DNA of 64,000 bases from Shigella phage SP21535. The notes under the pieces were generated by a model, which saw nothing but the letters and a program-made list of their open reading frames with translations, was not told the origin of the DNA and ran no database searches. This document shows, one piece after another, positions 1-62,785 of the stretch. Made by a program: the position numbers and the translations under genes. Location: sequence record PQ615101, one strand, 5' to 3'. The first letter of the stretch is position 1, and the number at the start of each line of letters is the position of its first letter.

Positions 1-212
1 TCTAAACGGGGAACCTCTCTAGTAGACAATCCCGTGCTAAATGTTCTTTTGAACTAAATGCCTAACGACTATCCCTTTGGGGAGTAGGGTCAAGTGACTC
101 GAAACGATAGACATCTTGCTTCATCAAGATGGAGATATAGTCTGATCTGTATGGTGACATGCAGCTGGATATAATTCCGGGATAAGATTAACGACCTTAT
201 CTGAACATAATG
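1..212 (+). other. Group I intron, 3' portion (td intron); 5' end lies outside the window; no endonuclease ORF in the visible part
   Basis: Shares core blocks with the nrdB intron in this window (tagggtcaagYgactcgaaa, gatatagtctgRtctg, gaacataaYg at the 3' end). Ends in G at 212, immediately before in-frame thymidylate synthase C-terminal coding sequence. Confidence 0.75.
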
Positions 213-524
213 CTTCCATTCAACATTGCCTCGTACGCTGCCTTGACGCATATTGTGGCTAAGATGTGTAATCTTATCCCAGGAGATTTGATATTTTCTG
301 GTGGTAATACTCATATCTATATGAATCACGTAGAACAATGTAAAGAAATTTTGCGTCGTGAGCCTAAAGAACTGTGTGAACTTAAAATTGATTGGCCTAT
401 AGAGTTTGGAAATTGTGACACCGAAACACAGCTTTACTGGTTAACTGAATACATGAAACCGAAAGATTTTATCCTTGAAAATTATGAATCGCATCCAGCA
501 ATTAAAGGGAAAATGGCAATATGA
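213..524 (+). CDS. td: Thymidylate synthase, exon 2 (C-terminal part); exon 1 is outside the window
   Basis: Translation [54 protein letters not shown]... matches the thymidylate synthase C-terminus. The ATG at 210 in the ORF track is formed by the last intron bases. Confidence 0.85.
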
Positions 525-1065: not shown

Positions 1066-3320
1066 TTAATGTTATCAAAAGTAGTGGTGTTTCTCAAAGC
1101 TTTGACCCGCAAAAAATTATTAAAGTTTTATCTTGGGCAGCTGAAGGAACATCTGTAGATCCTTATGAATTATATGAAAATATTAAATCATATCTCCGTG
1201 ATGGAATGACAACTGATGACATTCAGACTATTGTCATTAAGGCTGCTGCGAATTCTATTTCGGTTGAAGAGCCTGATTATCAATACGTAGCTGCACGCTG
1301 TTTAATGTTCGCTCTTCGTAAGCATGTTTATGGGCAGTATGAACCACGTTCATTTATTGACCATATTTCTTACTGCGTAAATGAAGGTAAATATGACCCT
1401 GAATTATTGTCAAAATATTCAGCAGAAGAAATTACATTTTTAGAATCAAAAATTAAGCACGAACGGGATATGGAATTTACTTATTCCGGGGCGATGCAAT
1501 TAAAAGAAAAATATCTAGTTAAAGATAAAACCACTGGTCAAATTTATGAAACTCCACAGTTTGCATTTATGACTATTGGAATGGCATTGCATCAAGATGA
1601 ACCTGTTGATAGATTAAAACACGTTATCCGTTTTTATGAAGCAGTATCTACTCGACAGATTTCATTACCAACTCCTATTATGGCTGGTTGCCGTACTCCA
1701 ACTCGGCAGTTTAGTTCATGCGTTGTTATTGAGGCAGGTGATTCGCTGAAGTCTATCAATAAGGCTTCTGCTTCAATTGTTGAATATATCTCCAAACGCG
1801 CTGGAATTGGTATTAACGTTGGTATGATTCGTGCCGAAGGTTCTAAGATTGGCATGGGTGAAGTACGCCATACTGGTGTTATTCCTTTTTGGAAACATTT
1901 TCAGACTGCAGTTAAATCATGCTCACAGGGTGGAATTCGTGGCGGCGCTGCTACTGCTTATTATCCTATTTGGCATTTGGAAGTTGAAAATCTTCTCGTT
2001 TTGAAAAATAACAAAGGCGTAGAAGAAAACCGCATTCGTCATATGGATTATGGCGTTCAACTGAATGATTTGATGATGGAACGATTCGGAAAGAACGACT
2101 ACATTACCTTGTTCAGTCCACATGAAATGGGTGGCGAGCTTTATTATTCTTATTTTAAAGACCAAGACCGTTTCCGTGAATTATATGAAGCCGCAGAAAA
2201 AGACCCTAATATTCGTAAAAAGCGTATTAAAGCCCGTGAACTGTTTGAATTGCTCATGACTGAACGCTCAGGAACAGCAAGGATTTATGTACAGTTCATT
2301 GATAATACGAATAACTATACTCCGTTTATTCGTGAAAAGGCACCTATTCGTCAGAGTAACTTGTGTTGTGAAATTGCTATTCCAACAAATGATGTGAATA
2401 GTCCTGATGCTGAAATTGGATTGTGTACCCTTAGCGCATTTGTGTTGGATAACTTCGATTGGCAAGACCAAGATAAAATTAATGAATTGGCAGAAGTTCA
2501 AGTTCGTGCTCTTGATAATCTGTTGGATTACCAAGGATATCCAGTTCCTGAAGCAGAAAAAGCTAAAAAGCGTCGAAATCTTGGTGTAGGTGTTACTAAC
2601 TATGCAGCTTGGCTGGCAAGTAACTTTGCTTCTTATGAAGATGCTAACGATTTAACACATGAACTATTTGAGAGATTGCAGTATGGACTCATTAAAGCAT
2701 CCATTAAGCTCGCCAAAGAAAAAGGACCTTGCGAATATTATTCAGACACTCGTTGGTCTCGAGGCGAATTACCTATCGACTGGTACAATAAAAAGATTGA
2801 CCAAATCGCAGCTCCAAAATACGTTTGTGACTGGTCGTCGCTGCGGGAAGACCTTAAGCTCTTTGGCATCCGTAATAGCACATTATCAGCACTTATGCCA
2901 TGTGAGTCATCTTCCCAAGTTTCCAACAGTACAAACGGTATCGAGCCTCCACGTGGACCAGTATCTGTTAAAGAATCAAAAGAGGGTTCCTTTAATCAAG
3001 TCGTGCCCAATATTGAACATAACATAGACCTATATGATTATACATGGAAATTAGCTAAGAAAGGTAATAAACCTTATCTTACGCAGGTAGCTATTATGCT
3101 GAAATGGGTATGTCAATCAGCTTCAGCGAATACATATTATGACCCGCAGATTTTTCCAAAAGGAAAGGTTCCAATGTCTGTAATGATTGATGACATGCTA
3201 TACGGATGGTATTATGGCATTAAAAACTTTTATTATCATAATACCCGCGATGGTTCTGGTACTGATGATTATGAAATAGAAACTCCTAAAGCAGATGATT
3301 GTTCATCCTGTAAATTATGA
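1056..3320 (+). CDS. nrdA: Ribonucleoside-diphosphate reductase alpha subunit
   Basis: 754 aa; N-terminal ATP-cone region, active-site Cys/Glu-containing core and C-terminal CxxC tail (DDCSSCKL) typical of class Ia NrdA. Confidence 0.95.
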   Translation: MQLINVIKSSGVSQSFDPQKIIKVLSWAAEGTSVDPYELYENIKSYLRDGMTTDDIQTIVIKAAANSISVEEPDYQYVAARCLMFALRKHVYGQYEPRSFIDHISYCVNEGKYDPELLSKYSAEEITFLESKIKHERDMEFTYSGAMQLKEKYLVKDKTTGQIYETPQFAFMTIGMALHQDEPVDRLKHVIRFYEAVSTRQISLPTPIMAGCRTPTRQFSSCVVIEAGDSLKSINKASASIVEYISKRAGIGINVGMIRAEGSKIGMGEVRHTGVIPFWKHFQTAVKSCSQGGIRGGAATAYYPIWHLEVENLLVLKNNKGVEENRIRHMDYGVQLNDLMMERFGKNDYITLFSPHEMGGELYYSYFKDQDRFRELYEAAEKDPNIRKKRIKARELFELLMTERSGTARIYVQFIDNTNNYTPFIREKAPIRQSNLCCEIAIPTNDVNSPDAEIGLCTLSAFVLDNFDWQDQDKINELAEVQVRALDNLLDYQGYPVPEAEKAKKRRNLGVGVTNYAAWLASNFASYEDANDLTHELFERLQYGLIKASIKLAKEKGPCEYYSDTRWSRGELPIDWYNKKIDQIAAPKYVCDWSSLREDLKLFGIRNSTLSALMPCESSSQVSNSTNGIEPPRGPVSVKESKEGSFNQVVPNIEHNIDLYDYTWKLAKKGNKPYLTQVAIMLKWVCQSASANTYYDPQIFPKGKVPMSVMIDDMLYGWYYGIKNFYYHNTRDGSGTDDYEIETPKADDCSSCKL

Positions 3321-4929
3321 TATAATTACCACAAGGATGTGGTTAACTAAGAATAACGCTATGTTTGATAATATATACAAAAACGGAAAGTTTCTTCCAT
3401 TTGGAGAAGAAAAACTTAAATCTAGACTAACAGAAGAAGATAAAGCTCTTCTAACTGATGGAATAGATTTTAAGCTCAATGTGTTCCAAATTATGGAAGG
3501 CATTGACATTAACGATCTAAAATGTGCAGTTTGTGGAAATTTCATTTCTCTGAAAACAGCAAAGAAACGTGTATTTCCAGCAACATGTAGTAAATCCTGC
3601 GCAGGGATATTTTTCGCGGATAAGAGAATTCAAAGCCGTGATACAAATTTTGGCGGAAAAGAAAAATATAAAAAATATTTGTCTGAACTTCAACACAAAA
3701 ATTCTTTAGAAAAATATGGAACAACTCATCAAAAAATTTCAAGAAATAAAAATAGAAAAACTTTAATTGAACGATATGGGGTAACGCATAATTCACAATT
3801 AGAAAGTGTGAAAGAAGCGAGAAAAGTTATAGAAAACGGTAAATCAGTTGATATTCTGCATTCTAGAAAATCTCGCGAAAAATCTAAGAAGACTAAATTA
3901 AATTGGACTGAAGAATATAAGGCATCGTTATATTCATCTATAGGAAAATCTATTAAAAATAACGGTCATATTAATCATGATATACTAGATAAAATCAATT
4001 ACAAAATTTCTATAGAAGAACTACAACAATTAGCAAATTGTTCTCGGATGACGGCTTATAGAGCTCTTTCATCCAAAGGACTAATTGACGTTCATTATAC
4101 TCAAAGTTCTATAGAGCAATTCATTTTAGATCTAGGATTTGATTGCGTAGAAACTAGAAAAATTATTCCTCCGTATGAATTAGATATTTACATTCCTGAG
4201 AAAAAATTGGCTATAGAATACGATGGAATTTATTGGCATTCTAGCGGGTCAAAGGAAACAGATAAAATTAAAGAAACTTATCATTTGATGAAGACAGAGA
4301 TGTGTGAAGCACAAGGAATTCAATTACTTCACATCTTCGAAAATGAATGGATTGATGATACAAAAAGAGAGATCTGGAAATCCATTATAAAGCATAAATT
4401 AGGATTATCAGAAAGAATACCAGCCCGAAAATGCAAAGCGCGTTTTGTTAATAAGGATGAGGCAAAAGAATTTATTAATAAGAATCATCTTCAAGGATTT
4501 TGCTCGGGAGCTCATACGTATAAAGGACTTTATTACAATAATGAGTTAGTTCAAATTATTTCTATCGGTAAATCTAGATATAGCACAGGTGATGAACTTT
4601 TAAGGATGTGTTCAAAATTGGGGGTTTGTGTTGTAGGAGGAGCCTCAAAATTATTAAAAGGAATTAATTGTCTATCTTATGGCAATCGAAGATGGTGCAG
4701 TACATTATCAAATGTTTATGACTCTGTCATGGAATTTAGTCATATCTCTGAGCCATGTTATTGGTACGTCGATAAAGGAGAGGTATTTCACCGCTCAAGC
4801 TATATGAAACATAAGCTTAAAAACAAGCTTAAAAATTATGATGATACAATAACTGAAGTAGAAAATTGTTATGCAAATGGTCTTAGAAGAATCTGGGACT
4901 GTGGAAATTTAGTTTACAGGACAAAATAA
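3295..4929 (+). CDS. Large endonuclease-like protein (Hef-like candidate) between nrdA and nrdB; start uncertain (alternative ATG at 3337)
   Basis: 530-544 aa ORF with Cys-rich N-terminal segment (CAVCGNF...ATCSKSC), repeated KYG-T-TH / RYG-V-TH modules, and a C-terminal segment YELDIYIPEKKLAIEYDGIYWHS resembling a PD-(D/E)xK / Vsr-like nuclease motif. It occupies the nrdA-nrdB slot where T-even phages carry mobile endonuclease genes. Confidence 0.6.
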   Translation: MIVHPVNYDIITTRMWLTKNNAMFDNIYKNGKFLPFGEEKLKSRLTEEDKALLTDGIDFKLNVFQIMEGIDINDLKCAVCGNFISLKTAKKRVFPATCSKSCAGIFFADKRIQSRDTNFGGKEKYKKYLSELQHKNSLEKYGTTHQKISRNKNRKTLIERYGVTHNSQLESVKEARKVIENGKSVDILHSRKSREKSKKTKLNWTEEYKASLYSSIGKSIKNNGHINHDILDKINYKISIEELQQLANCSRMTAYRALSSKGLIDVHYTQSSIEQFILDLGFDCVETRKIIPPYELDIYIPEKKLAIEYDGIYWHSSGSKETDKIKETYHLMKTEMCEAQGIQLLHIFENEWIDDTKREIWKSIIKHKLGLSERIPARKCKARFVNKDEAKEFINKNHLQGFCSGAHTYKGLYYNNELVQIISIGKSRYSTGDELLRMCSKLGVCVVGGASKLLKGINCLSYGNRRWCSTLSNVYDSVMEFSHISEPCYWYVDKGEVFHRSSYMKHKLKNKLKNYDDTITEVENCYANGLRRIWDCGNLVYRTK

Positions 4930-5604
4930 TGAGTACAGTTTTTAATACTAAACAGGTTGATGTTTTAAAAGAACCTATGTTTTTTGGTTCAGGTCTTGGA
5001 ATTGCGCGTTATGATATTCAACGACATAGGGTATTTGAAGAACTTATTGAACGTCAGCTCTCGTTTTTCTGGCGTCCTGAAGAAGTAAACTTGATGATGG
5101 ATGCTACTCAATTTAATAAGCTTCCTCAGTATCAACAAAATATTTTTACTAATAATCTGAAGTATCAATCATTACTTGATAGTATTCAAGGTCGTGCGCC
5201 GTCTGCTGTACTTATGCCATTGCTTTCAGACCCAAGCCTTGATACATGGGTTGCTACATGGACTTTTAGTGAAACTATTCACAGTCGTTCATATACTCAT
5301 ATCATGCGAAATCTTTATACTGATCCGTCAAAGGTATTTGATGAGATTGTATTAGATGAAGCTATCATGAAACGTGCTGAATCCATTGGACGTTATTATG
5401 ATGACGTTCTGATTAAAACCCGTGAATGGGAAAATGCTAAAGAATTTGTAGAACTAGCTAAAGAATCTCCTGATGCCGACTTTCGTTTAAACCGGGCTAT
5501 TAAGCAAGAAGCCGAAGCTAAACGTGCTTTAATGAAATCTCTTTACCTCTGTTTGCACGTTATTAATGCCTTAGAAGCTATTCGTTTTTATGTATCTTTT
5601 GCGT
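4929..5604 (+). CDS. nrdB: Ribonucleotide reductase beta subunit, exon 1
   Basis: Translation ends ...ALEAIRFYVSFA, the conserved NrdB helix; the frame is interrupted by the intron after gcgT at 5604. Confidence 0.85.
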
Positions 5605-5904
5605 AAAATGCGCCTTTAAACGGTAACGTTTATCGAAAACTCCTTTAATTGCTGGAAAGTCCTTTATAGGAAAACTAGCAGCCAAGGTTTTGCTTGCACC
5701 TTTAATTAGTATAATATGATTATACTTTTAAGAGGATGCACAATTGCAAAGCAAGGTTCAACGACTAGTCTTCGGACGTAGGGTCAAGCGACTCGAAATG
5801 GGGAGAATCCCTCTGGGATTGTGATATAGTCTGGTCTGCATAGTAATATGTAGCAGTTCATAAGAGAACGGGTTGAGAATTAGCGAGCTCAATCGAACAT
5901 AACG
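5605..5904 (+). other. Group I intron in nrdB, ORF-less (about 300 nt)
   Basis: Joining 5604 to 5905 restores the conserved NrdB sequence (VSFA-C-TFNFHKNMEIMEGNAK). The intron ends in G, shares core motifs with the td intron, and has no ORF of 60 aa or more. Confidence 0.8.
5688..5716 (+). promoter_or_regulatory. Middle-promoter-like element inside the nrdB intron (MotA-box-like ttTGCTTgcA, then TATAAT)
   Basis: Motif match only. It is followed by ATG and a 21-codon mini-ORF, possibly a remnant of a lost intron ORF. Confidence 0.25.
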
Positions 5905-61913: not shown

Positions 61914-62207
61914 CTATTTAATGAATACTTTAGATGATGCCTGAGCCACAGTATCACCGCATGATATTGGATCAGCCATTTGAACAGCTTTCTTTCCAGT
62001 GACATATACCTTAGAAGTTCTGGGTTGTGTCACTCCGCCATGTGTTTCATATGGCTTTTTAATTTCTGTATGTTCTGTAATTGGATCACCTGCTACGAGA
62101 ACAGCAATTCCTCCAGTGAATACTTTACTTTGTGTAGCATTCACAACTGTTGGAGGCCACGCTTCATGGCCAGCAGTAACACACTTATCATAACTTAATC
62201 CTGACAT
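61914..62207 (-). CDS. 5.4: PAAR-repeat spike-tip protein
   Basis: 97 aa, [46 protein letters not shown]... PAAR-like fold. Confidence 0.85.
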
Positions 62208-62785
62208 TTATAATACCCCGCTTTAACTCGCCCCTTTAAGGTACTATAATTTATATTAAGAGCTTTAGCTGCGATTTTAATACTTTTATATAAAACGCCG
62301 TTGATAATAATAGATTTAGCATTAGGGGCTATTTTGCCATACATTGGGTTATTGGCGCCGCACATCTTCGGAGTTTTACCTCTAGGCCCTCTAGGCCCTC
62401 TTTTTCTAGACGATTTAATGCTAATTTTCAATCTAGTTTCACGCGAATGAGATTTACCGTAAAATCCATTTTTAACACCCGCTGTGCTATGTTTTGGGAA
62501 GCCACCGATACCACCTAGTTTCATATTATAAGTTTTCTCAGATTTAACAAATTCCTCTGTGACTATTTCTGCCTCTGCGTCATACATAGCTTTTTCAGAT
62601 TCAAAGAATTTTATAATATGCTTATAAAAATTATCTATGCCATATTTTTTAATGGCATTTTTAATGGCAACGCCAGAACCCATATACCCATCATCCAAAT
62701 TTGAAGTTTTATGGACACCTACATAAATTTTTCCCGTTGTTTTATTAGTTATTGAATACAAATAAAAATATTTATGGCCTCTCAT
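62195..62785 (-). CDS. GIY-YIG homing endonuclease (Seg-like)
   Basis: 196 aa; GIY-YIG core ([20 protein letters not shown] ... YNMKLGG), NUMOD3-like segment ([16 protein letters not shown]) and C-terminal HTH-like region ([16 protein letters not shown]). Confidence 0.8.

Follow-up and report, generated by a model that had tools for sequence, protein, structure and literature searches.

The window analysed here, a stretch of 64,000 nucleotides of Shigella phage SP21535 (sequence record PQ615101), opens within the 3' four-fifths of a 254-nt, endonuclease-free td intron of the T4 type, next to which lies an intact td exon 2. Positions 1-212 (+) comprise the 3' 212 nt of this group I intron (IA2-type, RF00028) and correspond to intron positions 43-254 of the 254-nt form. 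The Rfam covariance model RF00028 matches window 1-164 with 50.7 bits (E 2.8e-11) over model positions 54-253; the match is flagged as cut at the 5' end, and this 5'-cut copy lies above the group I gathering threshold of 50 bits. The terminal guanosine (omega-G) is G212, which aligns with the 3' splice site of T4 td and places the splice between 212 and 213. The junction, ...gaacataatG(212)|CTTCCATTC, agrees with that of T4 (...gaacataatg|ctaccgttt), and exon 2 opens with CTT CCA TTC AAC ATT GCC, i.e. LPFNIA as in T4, with the T4 insertion position in td retained. A preliminary description had placed the 3' portion of a td intron and its 3' splice site at these positions, and RF00028 as well as the T4 alignment bear it out. 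It had also remarked on trivially short open reading frames only; the ORF list indeed contains none of at least 30 aa on the + strand inside 1-209. On the - strand the intron part holds ORFs of 31-32 aa, and furthermore an 82-aa ORF with a TTG start (90-338) that spans the intron/exon-2 junction and is probably spurious.

By themselves, 212 AT-rich and ORF-free bases mean little, because the last 147 nt of the T4 intron are non-coding as well; only about 65 nt of its last 212 nt code for I-TevI (reference M12742, intron 764-1779, I-TevI CDS 895-1632). The ground on which the preliminary description had put the absence of an I-TevI-type ORF was thus insufficient, but its conclusion holds by way of the slot flanks. 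In T4 the I-TevI gene sits in a loop closed by P6a (tgtagga...ttctaca), between gtgctaaat and taaatgcc; other td introns with I-TevI likewise house it in the P6a loop. Both flanks, invariant across all td introns compared, fall within the window (34-42 and 55-62) and enclose 12 nt (43-54), as against 774 nt in T4. These 12 nt, gttcttttgaac on the + strand, form a minimal P6a hairpin, GUUC-UUUU-GAAC, with a 4-bp stem and a UUUU tetraloop, which fills the slot of T4 P6a and I-TevI. Window 1-42 equals the T4 intron segment upstream of the ORF without mismatch, and window 55-212, which aligns to the part following the ORF, shows 7 mismatches in 158 positions. No I-TevI homologue is found by tblastn anywhere in the 64-kb window (best E 0.22), and a relocation of the gene elsewhere in the window is ruled out by the same search. 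Because the entire T4 ORF slot falls inside the window and is only 12 nt long, the verdict is firm, and the td intron is almost certainly ORF-less. Absent are both the I-TevI gene in the P6a loop, a trait of T4-type td introns, and the coding of a homing endonuclease, a trait of mobile introns.

The 212 nt are 100% identical in three Tequatrovirus genomes of the phage collection (N2, HMD-9 and 236Ecol005PP) and 97% identical in CJY920. Five Tequatrovirus genomes possess a 254-nt td intron, in which 42 nt, comprising P1, P2 and the 5' strand of P3, extend from the 5' splice site (...ttgggt|taattgagg...) to the base that matches window position 1; the figure of 42 nt rests on these relatives, since the window starts after that segment. 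Judging by their sequence, the 42 nt expected upstream of window position 1, after ...TTGGGT, are taattgaggcctgagtataaggtgacttatacttgtaatcta. The comparison with the T4 td intron (about 1 kb) proposed by the preliminary description accordingly gives 254 nt, in relatives with the same 212 nt, against 1016 nt in T4, and a total of 254 nt therefore leaves no room for an endonuclease gene. The full-length intron of N2 matches the complete RF00028 model (1-253) with 72.6 bits and no insertion. That description had left two options, an ORF-less intron or a very different organisation upstream. The former stands; the latter does not agree with the relatives, whose upstream part consists of 42 nt with no ORF. 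As the first ~42 nt of the intron lie outside the window, an endonuclease gene in P1/P2 or another organisation there is conceivable, but it is most improbable: all five Tequatrovirus relatives with the 254-nt intron lack an ORF in their 42 upstream nucleotides, no ORF lies outside P6a in any of the 13 td introns examined, and window position 1 corresponds to position 54 of the 253 in the Rfam model. The clean, ORF-less form is rare and present in 6 of 268 intron-bearing records of the phage collection.

When the secondary structure of the T4 td intron, which comprises P1-P9.2 with 73 pairs and the P3/P7 pseudoknot, is projected onto the sequence, 73 of 73 pairs are standard. Twelve td introns from Tequatrovirus, Gelderlandvirus and a Klebsiella phage were aligned for a count of the structure, in which 99.9% of the cells pair and 7 pairs are changed on both sides, as against 29-44% and 0-1, respectively, in structures slid by 1-3 columns. 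On the + strand of the window, P4 (6-11/30-35) encloses P5 (16-18/24-26) at 6-35, both of them helices of the minimum free energy (MFE) fold and with standard pairs in 12 of 12 td introns. P6 (36-37/60-61), with a symmetric UAAAU/UAAAU internal loop (38-42 and 55-59), occupies 36-61 and provides the conserved flanks of the ORF slot. According to the structure count, P7 (67-71/138-142) spans 67-142, is pseudoknotted with P3, and contains P7.1 (72-75/80-83), P7.2 (87-91/96-100), the 3' strand of P3 (106-111) and P8 (112-118/125-131). P9 (147-153/158-164), P9.1 (165-169/176-180) and P9.2 (181-186/196-201) follow at 147-201, in the MFE fold as well as in the structure count. The unconstrained MFE fold of the td intron (-69.1 kcal/mol, z -2.7) recovers P2, P3, P4, P5, P6 and P6a, and also P7.1, P7.2, P8, P9, P9.1 and P9.2. 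Thus the P3-P8 core helices, the P3/P7 pseudoknot and the P7 guanosine site of group I introns are present, and G212 directly precedes the 3' splice site and exon 2. The U-G pair in P1 at the 5' splice site lies outside the window; it occurs in 12 of 12 relatives, including those with identical 212 nt.

All differences of the window from T4 are compensatory, structure-preserving or unpaired. The pair 114/129 in P8 is changed from A-U to U-A, i.e. on both sides; pairing is kept at 150 in P9 (C-G to U-G) and at 182 in P9.2 (G-U to A-U); positions 122 and 124 in L8 and 145 between P7 and P9 are unpaired. The P6-L6a region reportedly tolerates replacement (Salvo, Coetzee and Belfort 1990, J Mol Biol 211:537). 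Likewise, engineered td introns with an altered P6 region, containing a theophylline-sensing insert, still splice in bacteria (PMC8565351). Self-splicing is expected, because 73 of 73 core pairs are kept and compensatory changes are present, and the intact, covarying core together with group I chemistry predicts that the 254-nt td intron is very probably splicing-competent. Its RNA would fold into P1-P9.2 and bind guanosine in P7, and two transesterifications would excise the intron and join the td exons, from which thymidylate synthase would be made.

The intron query has compact coverage in 37 of the 268 matching phage records, and representatives of such compact intron records form a series of I-TevI loss. 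Phages of the e11/2 class possess a slot of 203 nt, with an in-frame deletion between two cattttaaa repeats that leaves a 55-aa ORF. The HP3 / 235Ecol030PP class (77 nt) and Klebsiella phage EI (72 nt) each keep an I-TevI fragment. In PD112 and BYEP01 the slot is reduced to 20-21 nt, the T4 P6a stem on a short loop, and the 3' strand still reads as the I-TevI codons tgg ttc tac. Slots of 12 nt with a clean hairpin are found in three types: gttcttttgaac in the window, N2, HMD-9, 236Ecol005PP and CJY920, without any trace of I-TevI or T4 P6a; gttcgaaagaac in SEA1 (Gelderlandvirus), a GUUC/GAAC stem with a GAAA loop; and cagcagtagctg in GRNsp7. The window and GRNsp7 (CAGC/GCUG) hairpins differ by changes on both sides in 3 of 4 stem pairs. 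I-TevI function is lost in the deletion derivatives (e11/2, HP3/235Ecol030PP, PD112, Klebsiella EI) as it is in the window form, but the derivatives keep recognisable I-TevI fragments and the T4 P6a stem, of which the window form has neither.

The P6a slot is hypervariable in this intron family. The 71 introns with the same flanks in IMG/VR contain 49 distinct inserts, 12-32 nt long, of which 47 can be folded into a terminal stem of at least 4 bp, as against 3% in shuffles. Neither the gttcttttgaac nor the cagcagtagctg hairpin is among these 49 distinct inserts. Several copies of the intron core (CCCGTGCTAAAT...TAAATGCC), 2-4 within a few kb, are present on single IMG/VR contigs (L053, L028, L024 and L074), and the P6a hairpin differs in each copy; some phages thus possess several closely spaced introns of this family.

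The hairpin and its surroundings recur in an intron of another gene. Window 1-71 (+), which covers the 3' end of P3, P4, P5, P6, P6a, J6/7 and the 5' strand of P7, equals the nrdD (sunY) intron of N2-like Tequatroviruses base for base. The exact run comprises 71 nt in the comparison with N2 and is bordered by sequences of 35% and 60% identity, whereas within T4 the td and nrdD introns have no exact run in common longer than 21 nt. When metagenome contigs were scanned for the hairpin together with its flanks, a single contig, UMED01026524, was found, with the motif in another intron, whose P1-P3 and P7.1-P9 differ from td and which has an ORF downstream that presumably resembles I-TevII. BLAST identifies it as the nrdD intron that many Tequatroviruses possess. 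The N2-type nrdD intron is present in 45 phage records at a coverage of at least 80%, with 100% identity in 40 of the 40 matches listed, and its carriers include N2, 236Ecol005PP, GRNsp7 and BYEP01. It shares P4-P5-P6-P6a and the start of P7 with the window intron, gttcttttgaac included, but it interrupts a different gene, possesses a different P1-P3 and P7.1-P9, and carries its I-TevII-like ORF after P9 and not in P6a. An identity of the window intron as an nrdD intron is therefore rejected, as only the 71-nt P4-P6a module matches and the interrupted gene is td.

A second case is found in GRNsp7, the ORF-less td intron of which carries the P6a of the T4 nrdD intron, cagcagtagctg, within an exact run of 28 nt. 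The GRNsp7 hairpin (L009 1251-1262) equals that of the T4 nrdD intron (L080, - strand, ~5565-5554). The nrdD intron of GRNsp7 itself is of the N2 type, so that the hairpin must have come from another phage or from an ancestor. Two different hairpins, each common to a td intron and an nrdD allele, cannot reasonably be attributed to coincidence or vertical descent, and for this reason the td and nrdD introns have very probably exchanged the P4-P6a module by recombination across their conserved core. The 'tc' at window 1-2, by inspection part of P3 in both introns, is no footprint of the event, and the nrdB intron of the window is no hairpin donor, its P4-P6 region being unrelated. In unrelated phage groups, the nrdD introns of Felixounavirus REP8 and Si3 (L083, L084) and of L085 and L086 appear, by inspection, to lie at a similar nrdD position. 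The P6a slot of these nrdD introns contains an HNH endonuclease gene (Si3), its remnant (REP8) or a short hairpin (TH18, cggtatcaaccg), i.e. the same series of gain and loss with a different endonuclease family.

N2-like phages possess stretches of 42 nt and 17 nt that are identical in both introns, and a short-read assembler might have switched between td and nrdD introns through this common core and thereby skipped I-TevI. Such an artefact is highly unlikely: it needs two switches within 71 nt, the second inside the 17-nt repeat, and the form is present in six independent assemblies, including those of HMD-9 and SEA1, which lack any nrdD intron. Seventeen nucleotides are shorter than the k-mer sizes usual in short-read assemblers. 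The clean hairpin could also have arisen by a plain deletion of I-TevI and subsequent compensatory evolution to a new stem, its match to nrdD being coincidental. Deletions do occur at this locus, where PD112, BYEP01, 235Ecol030PP/HP3, e11/2 and Klebsiella EI keep I-TevI fragments, and the nrdB intron of the window lost its ORF between ACAATTG repeats. The window hairpin, however, contains no remnant of I-TevI or of T4 P6a, and its agreement with the nrdD hairpin in 12 of 12 positions, encountered twice with two hairpins, is not credible by chance, identical pairs making up at most 1.5% in the slot census (hand count of the insert tally). We consider this course very unlikely as well.

An exchange between td and nrdD may furthermore have been the cause of the I-TevI loss, although we put this forward tentatively, as a possibility rather than as the probable course. 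With equal reserve, a gene conversion for which the nrdD intron of the same phage or of a co-infecting one served as template may have removed I-TevI in one step: the identical core sequences of 42 nt and 17 nt would act as homology arms, and the nrdD template would replace P6a and I-TevI at once. A transfer from nrdD to td is favoured by the N2-type nrdD intron, which is common and co-resident with I-TevI-bearing or remnant td introns, and GRNsp7 is read most simply in this direction. Against the exchange as cause, HMD-9 and SEA1 possess the clean hairpin in td and an uninterrupted nrdD gene, and SEA1, which belongs to a different genus, shares the GUUC/GAAC stem, closed there by a GAAA loop. 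Moreover, the N2-type nrdD intron alone has the P4-P5 of td, which points to a transfer from td to nrdD, with the hairpin possibly carried along. The flanking SNPs do not indicate a donor, as the flanks are identical and the td/nrdD comparison offers no diagnostic sites. The GUUC-loop-GAAC hairpin might accordingly be the original P6a of td, never invaded by I-TevI, from which the N2-type nrdD intron later copied P4-P6a; the identity of td and nrdD would therefore say nothing on how I-TevI was lost. This ancestral state, plausible but somewhat short of probable, agrees with the exact P4-P5 of td in the N2-type nrdD intron only, as the nrdD introns of T4, Felixounavirus, Vequintavirinae and Justusliebigvirus all differ there, and parsimony favours a single tract of 71 nt over two events. 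SEA1 (Gelderlandvirus) combines GUUC-GAAA-GAAC with an intron-less nrdD, as does HMD-9 its own hairpin, CGG4-1 of the same genus as SEA1 has a T4-like P6a with an I-TevI homologue, and group I introns are ancestrally ORF-less according to reviews (PMC3073962). However, in its remainder the intron agrees at 96-97% identity with td introns that bear I-TevI, with SNPs shared in mosaic distribution and no deep separate lineage visible, the form is rare, with the six records mentioned, and GRNsp7 is again explained most simply by transfer from nrdD to td. A conversion from nrdD to td and an old, empty td intron as donor are about equally likely, each with a little less than an even chance. The best explanation overall, and a likely one, is an ORF-less, splicing td intron with a module shared with nrdD.

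Exon 2 of td (213-524, +) is intact, with 103 codons and a stop, encodes the C-terminal 103 aa of thymidylate synthase, and matches Pfam PF00303 (Thymidylat_synt) at model positions 176-266 of 266 with 91 bits. Of 104 translated positions (103 aa and the stop), 103 are identical to phage e11/2 and 73 to T4. Over its length exon 2 is 96.5% identical to e11/2 but only 70-72% identical to N2 and HMD-9, despite the identical intron. In its C-terminal ~45 codons (380-524), exon 2 departs from T4 and N2 by 16-19 mismatches per 24 nt and represents a separate allele, which is identical to that of the e11/2 and 235Ecol030PP type. Tequatroviruses carry td C-termini of two kinds that diverge strongly from each other. 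The crossover falls into the interval 222-229 (+), the sequence being of HMD-9 type through nt 17 of exon 2 and of e11/2 type from nt 10 onwards. The same exon-2 protein is encoded on 21 other contigs, and the eight contigs listed have exon-2 starts of the e11/2 type; in all seven of those listed in which the preceding intron is measurable it is 445 or 1016 nt long, and in none 254 nt. The phage collection contains no record that combines this intron with this exon 2, and the exact 42-nt pattern across the intron/exon-2 junction has no match in IMG/VR or GTDB genomes. As exon 2 switches type within 17 nt, the ORF-less intron has been recombined into a different td background, i.e. transferred between phages with a very short co-converted exon tract. 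Such a short tract could result either from general recombination during mixed infection or from homing driven by I-TevI provided in trans.

For want of an I-TevI gene, the intron is unable to cut intron-less td alleles or to home by itself. The td allele would in turn be uncuttable by I-TevI, because the intron splits the recognition site. Persistence of the intron could be accounted for as follows: only a base-precise deletion would restore td, the split recognition site would protect the allele from I-TevI, and spread would proceed via ordinary recombination or via I-TevI that a co-infecting phage provides in trans.

A second group I intron is located in nrdB (5601-5904, +; Rfam 69.1 bits over the full model). 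It comprises 304 nt, compared to 598 nt in T4, and the defective I-TevIII ORF is gone, lost via a deletion of ~294 nt between two ACAATTG direct repeats; it also lacks 6 nt in the tataaata late-promoter box. Among 25 matches sampled across the ranking, none covers the nrdB intron of the window at full length in a single piece. Both introns of the window are thus without endonuclease genes, apparently by different routes. An ORF of 544 aa (3295-4929, +) overlaps the end of nrdA, at the position of mobE in T4, and is annotated as 'Hef-like homing endonuclease' in phages SG1 and N2. Its only Pfam match, restriction-endonuclease-like (PF18741, 22 bits), lies below threshold. By analogy with MobE of T4, this ORF, ~670 nt upstream of the nrdB intron, may mobilise that intron in trans.

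N2 possesses a free-standing GIY-YIG endonuclease of 243 aa (L001 3782-4513, - strand), 46% identical to I-TevI, the gene of which is situated between nrdA.2 and nrdA, ~570 bp downstream of td. The same paralogue is present in three metagenome contigs (L088, L090 and L095) together with the 55-aa I-TevI remnant. It is absent from the window according to tblastn, and the sole weak match to it (E 0.007) is a 196-aa ORF at 62195-62785 (-) with Seg-like GIY-YIG motifs (YVGVHKT...GYMGSG).

Textbooks present the I-TevI-bearing td intron as the model of a mobile group I intron, and the homing-cycle model predicts decay and loss of the endonuclease after fixation of the intron. The intron of the window shares gene, insertion site and core with that of T4 (1016 nt, group IA2, I-TevI in the P6a loop), but lacks I-TevI along with its late promoter, operator and regulatory hairpin, and has a different 4-bp P6a stem. 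In all respects tested but the presence of I-TevI it belongs to the T4 td lineage, and it is not mobile in the strict sense. We know of no neighbouring endonuclease that targets td. The T4 nrdB intron, with its defunct I-TevIII, is mobilised in trans by MobE (PMC2790892) and is likewise non-autonomous, persisting without a working endonuclease of its own; it keeps a truncated ORF, whereas the td intron described here keeps nothing. In 'collaborative homing', ORF-less phage group I introns are paired with free-standing endonucleases (PMC3984707). Like these introns, that of the window lacks an endonuclease and interrupts a conserved phage gene, but unlike in these systems the window did not yield any free-standing endonuclease with td as its target. 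In its working, it may be likened to td ribozymes engineered to lack the ORF.

Bryk and Belfort (1990, Nature 346:394, 'Spontaneous shuffling of domains between introns of phage T4') are said to have obtained splicing-proficient chimeras in the laboratory. Those chimeras likewise go back to different T4 introns that recombined at conserved elements of their cores; they arose under selection, whereas here natural isolates are chimeric and at the same time devoid of the endonuclease gene. Sandegren and Sjoberg (2004, J Biol Chem) reportedly also dealt with ORF-less introns or endonuclease decay. ORF-less phage group I introns and the decay of their endonucleases are established ideas (PMC3073962, PMC3984707), and the literature searched contains no description of natural ORF-less td introns or of td/nrdD chimeras. 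Within that literature, a natural, clean td intron with a P4-P6a module shared with nrdD seems to be undescribed, although the identical intron sequence is already present, unremarked, in GenBank genomes.

With this form, the whole natural series becomes visible, from the full gene through the in-frame remnant and small scars to a clean ribozyme of 254 nt. Split td genes annotated without an endonuclease are therefore genuine, and a natural minimal td ribozyme is available for comparison with engineered ones. The P4-P6a module common to td and nrdD constitutes natural evidence for the exchange of structural modules among phage introns. If the exchange removed I-TevI, it would represent a one-step exit from the homing cycle that spares the ribozyme from damage. 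If a conversion templated on nrdD took place, sister introns would serve as repair templates for each other, and P4-P6 modules would be shuffled in nature.
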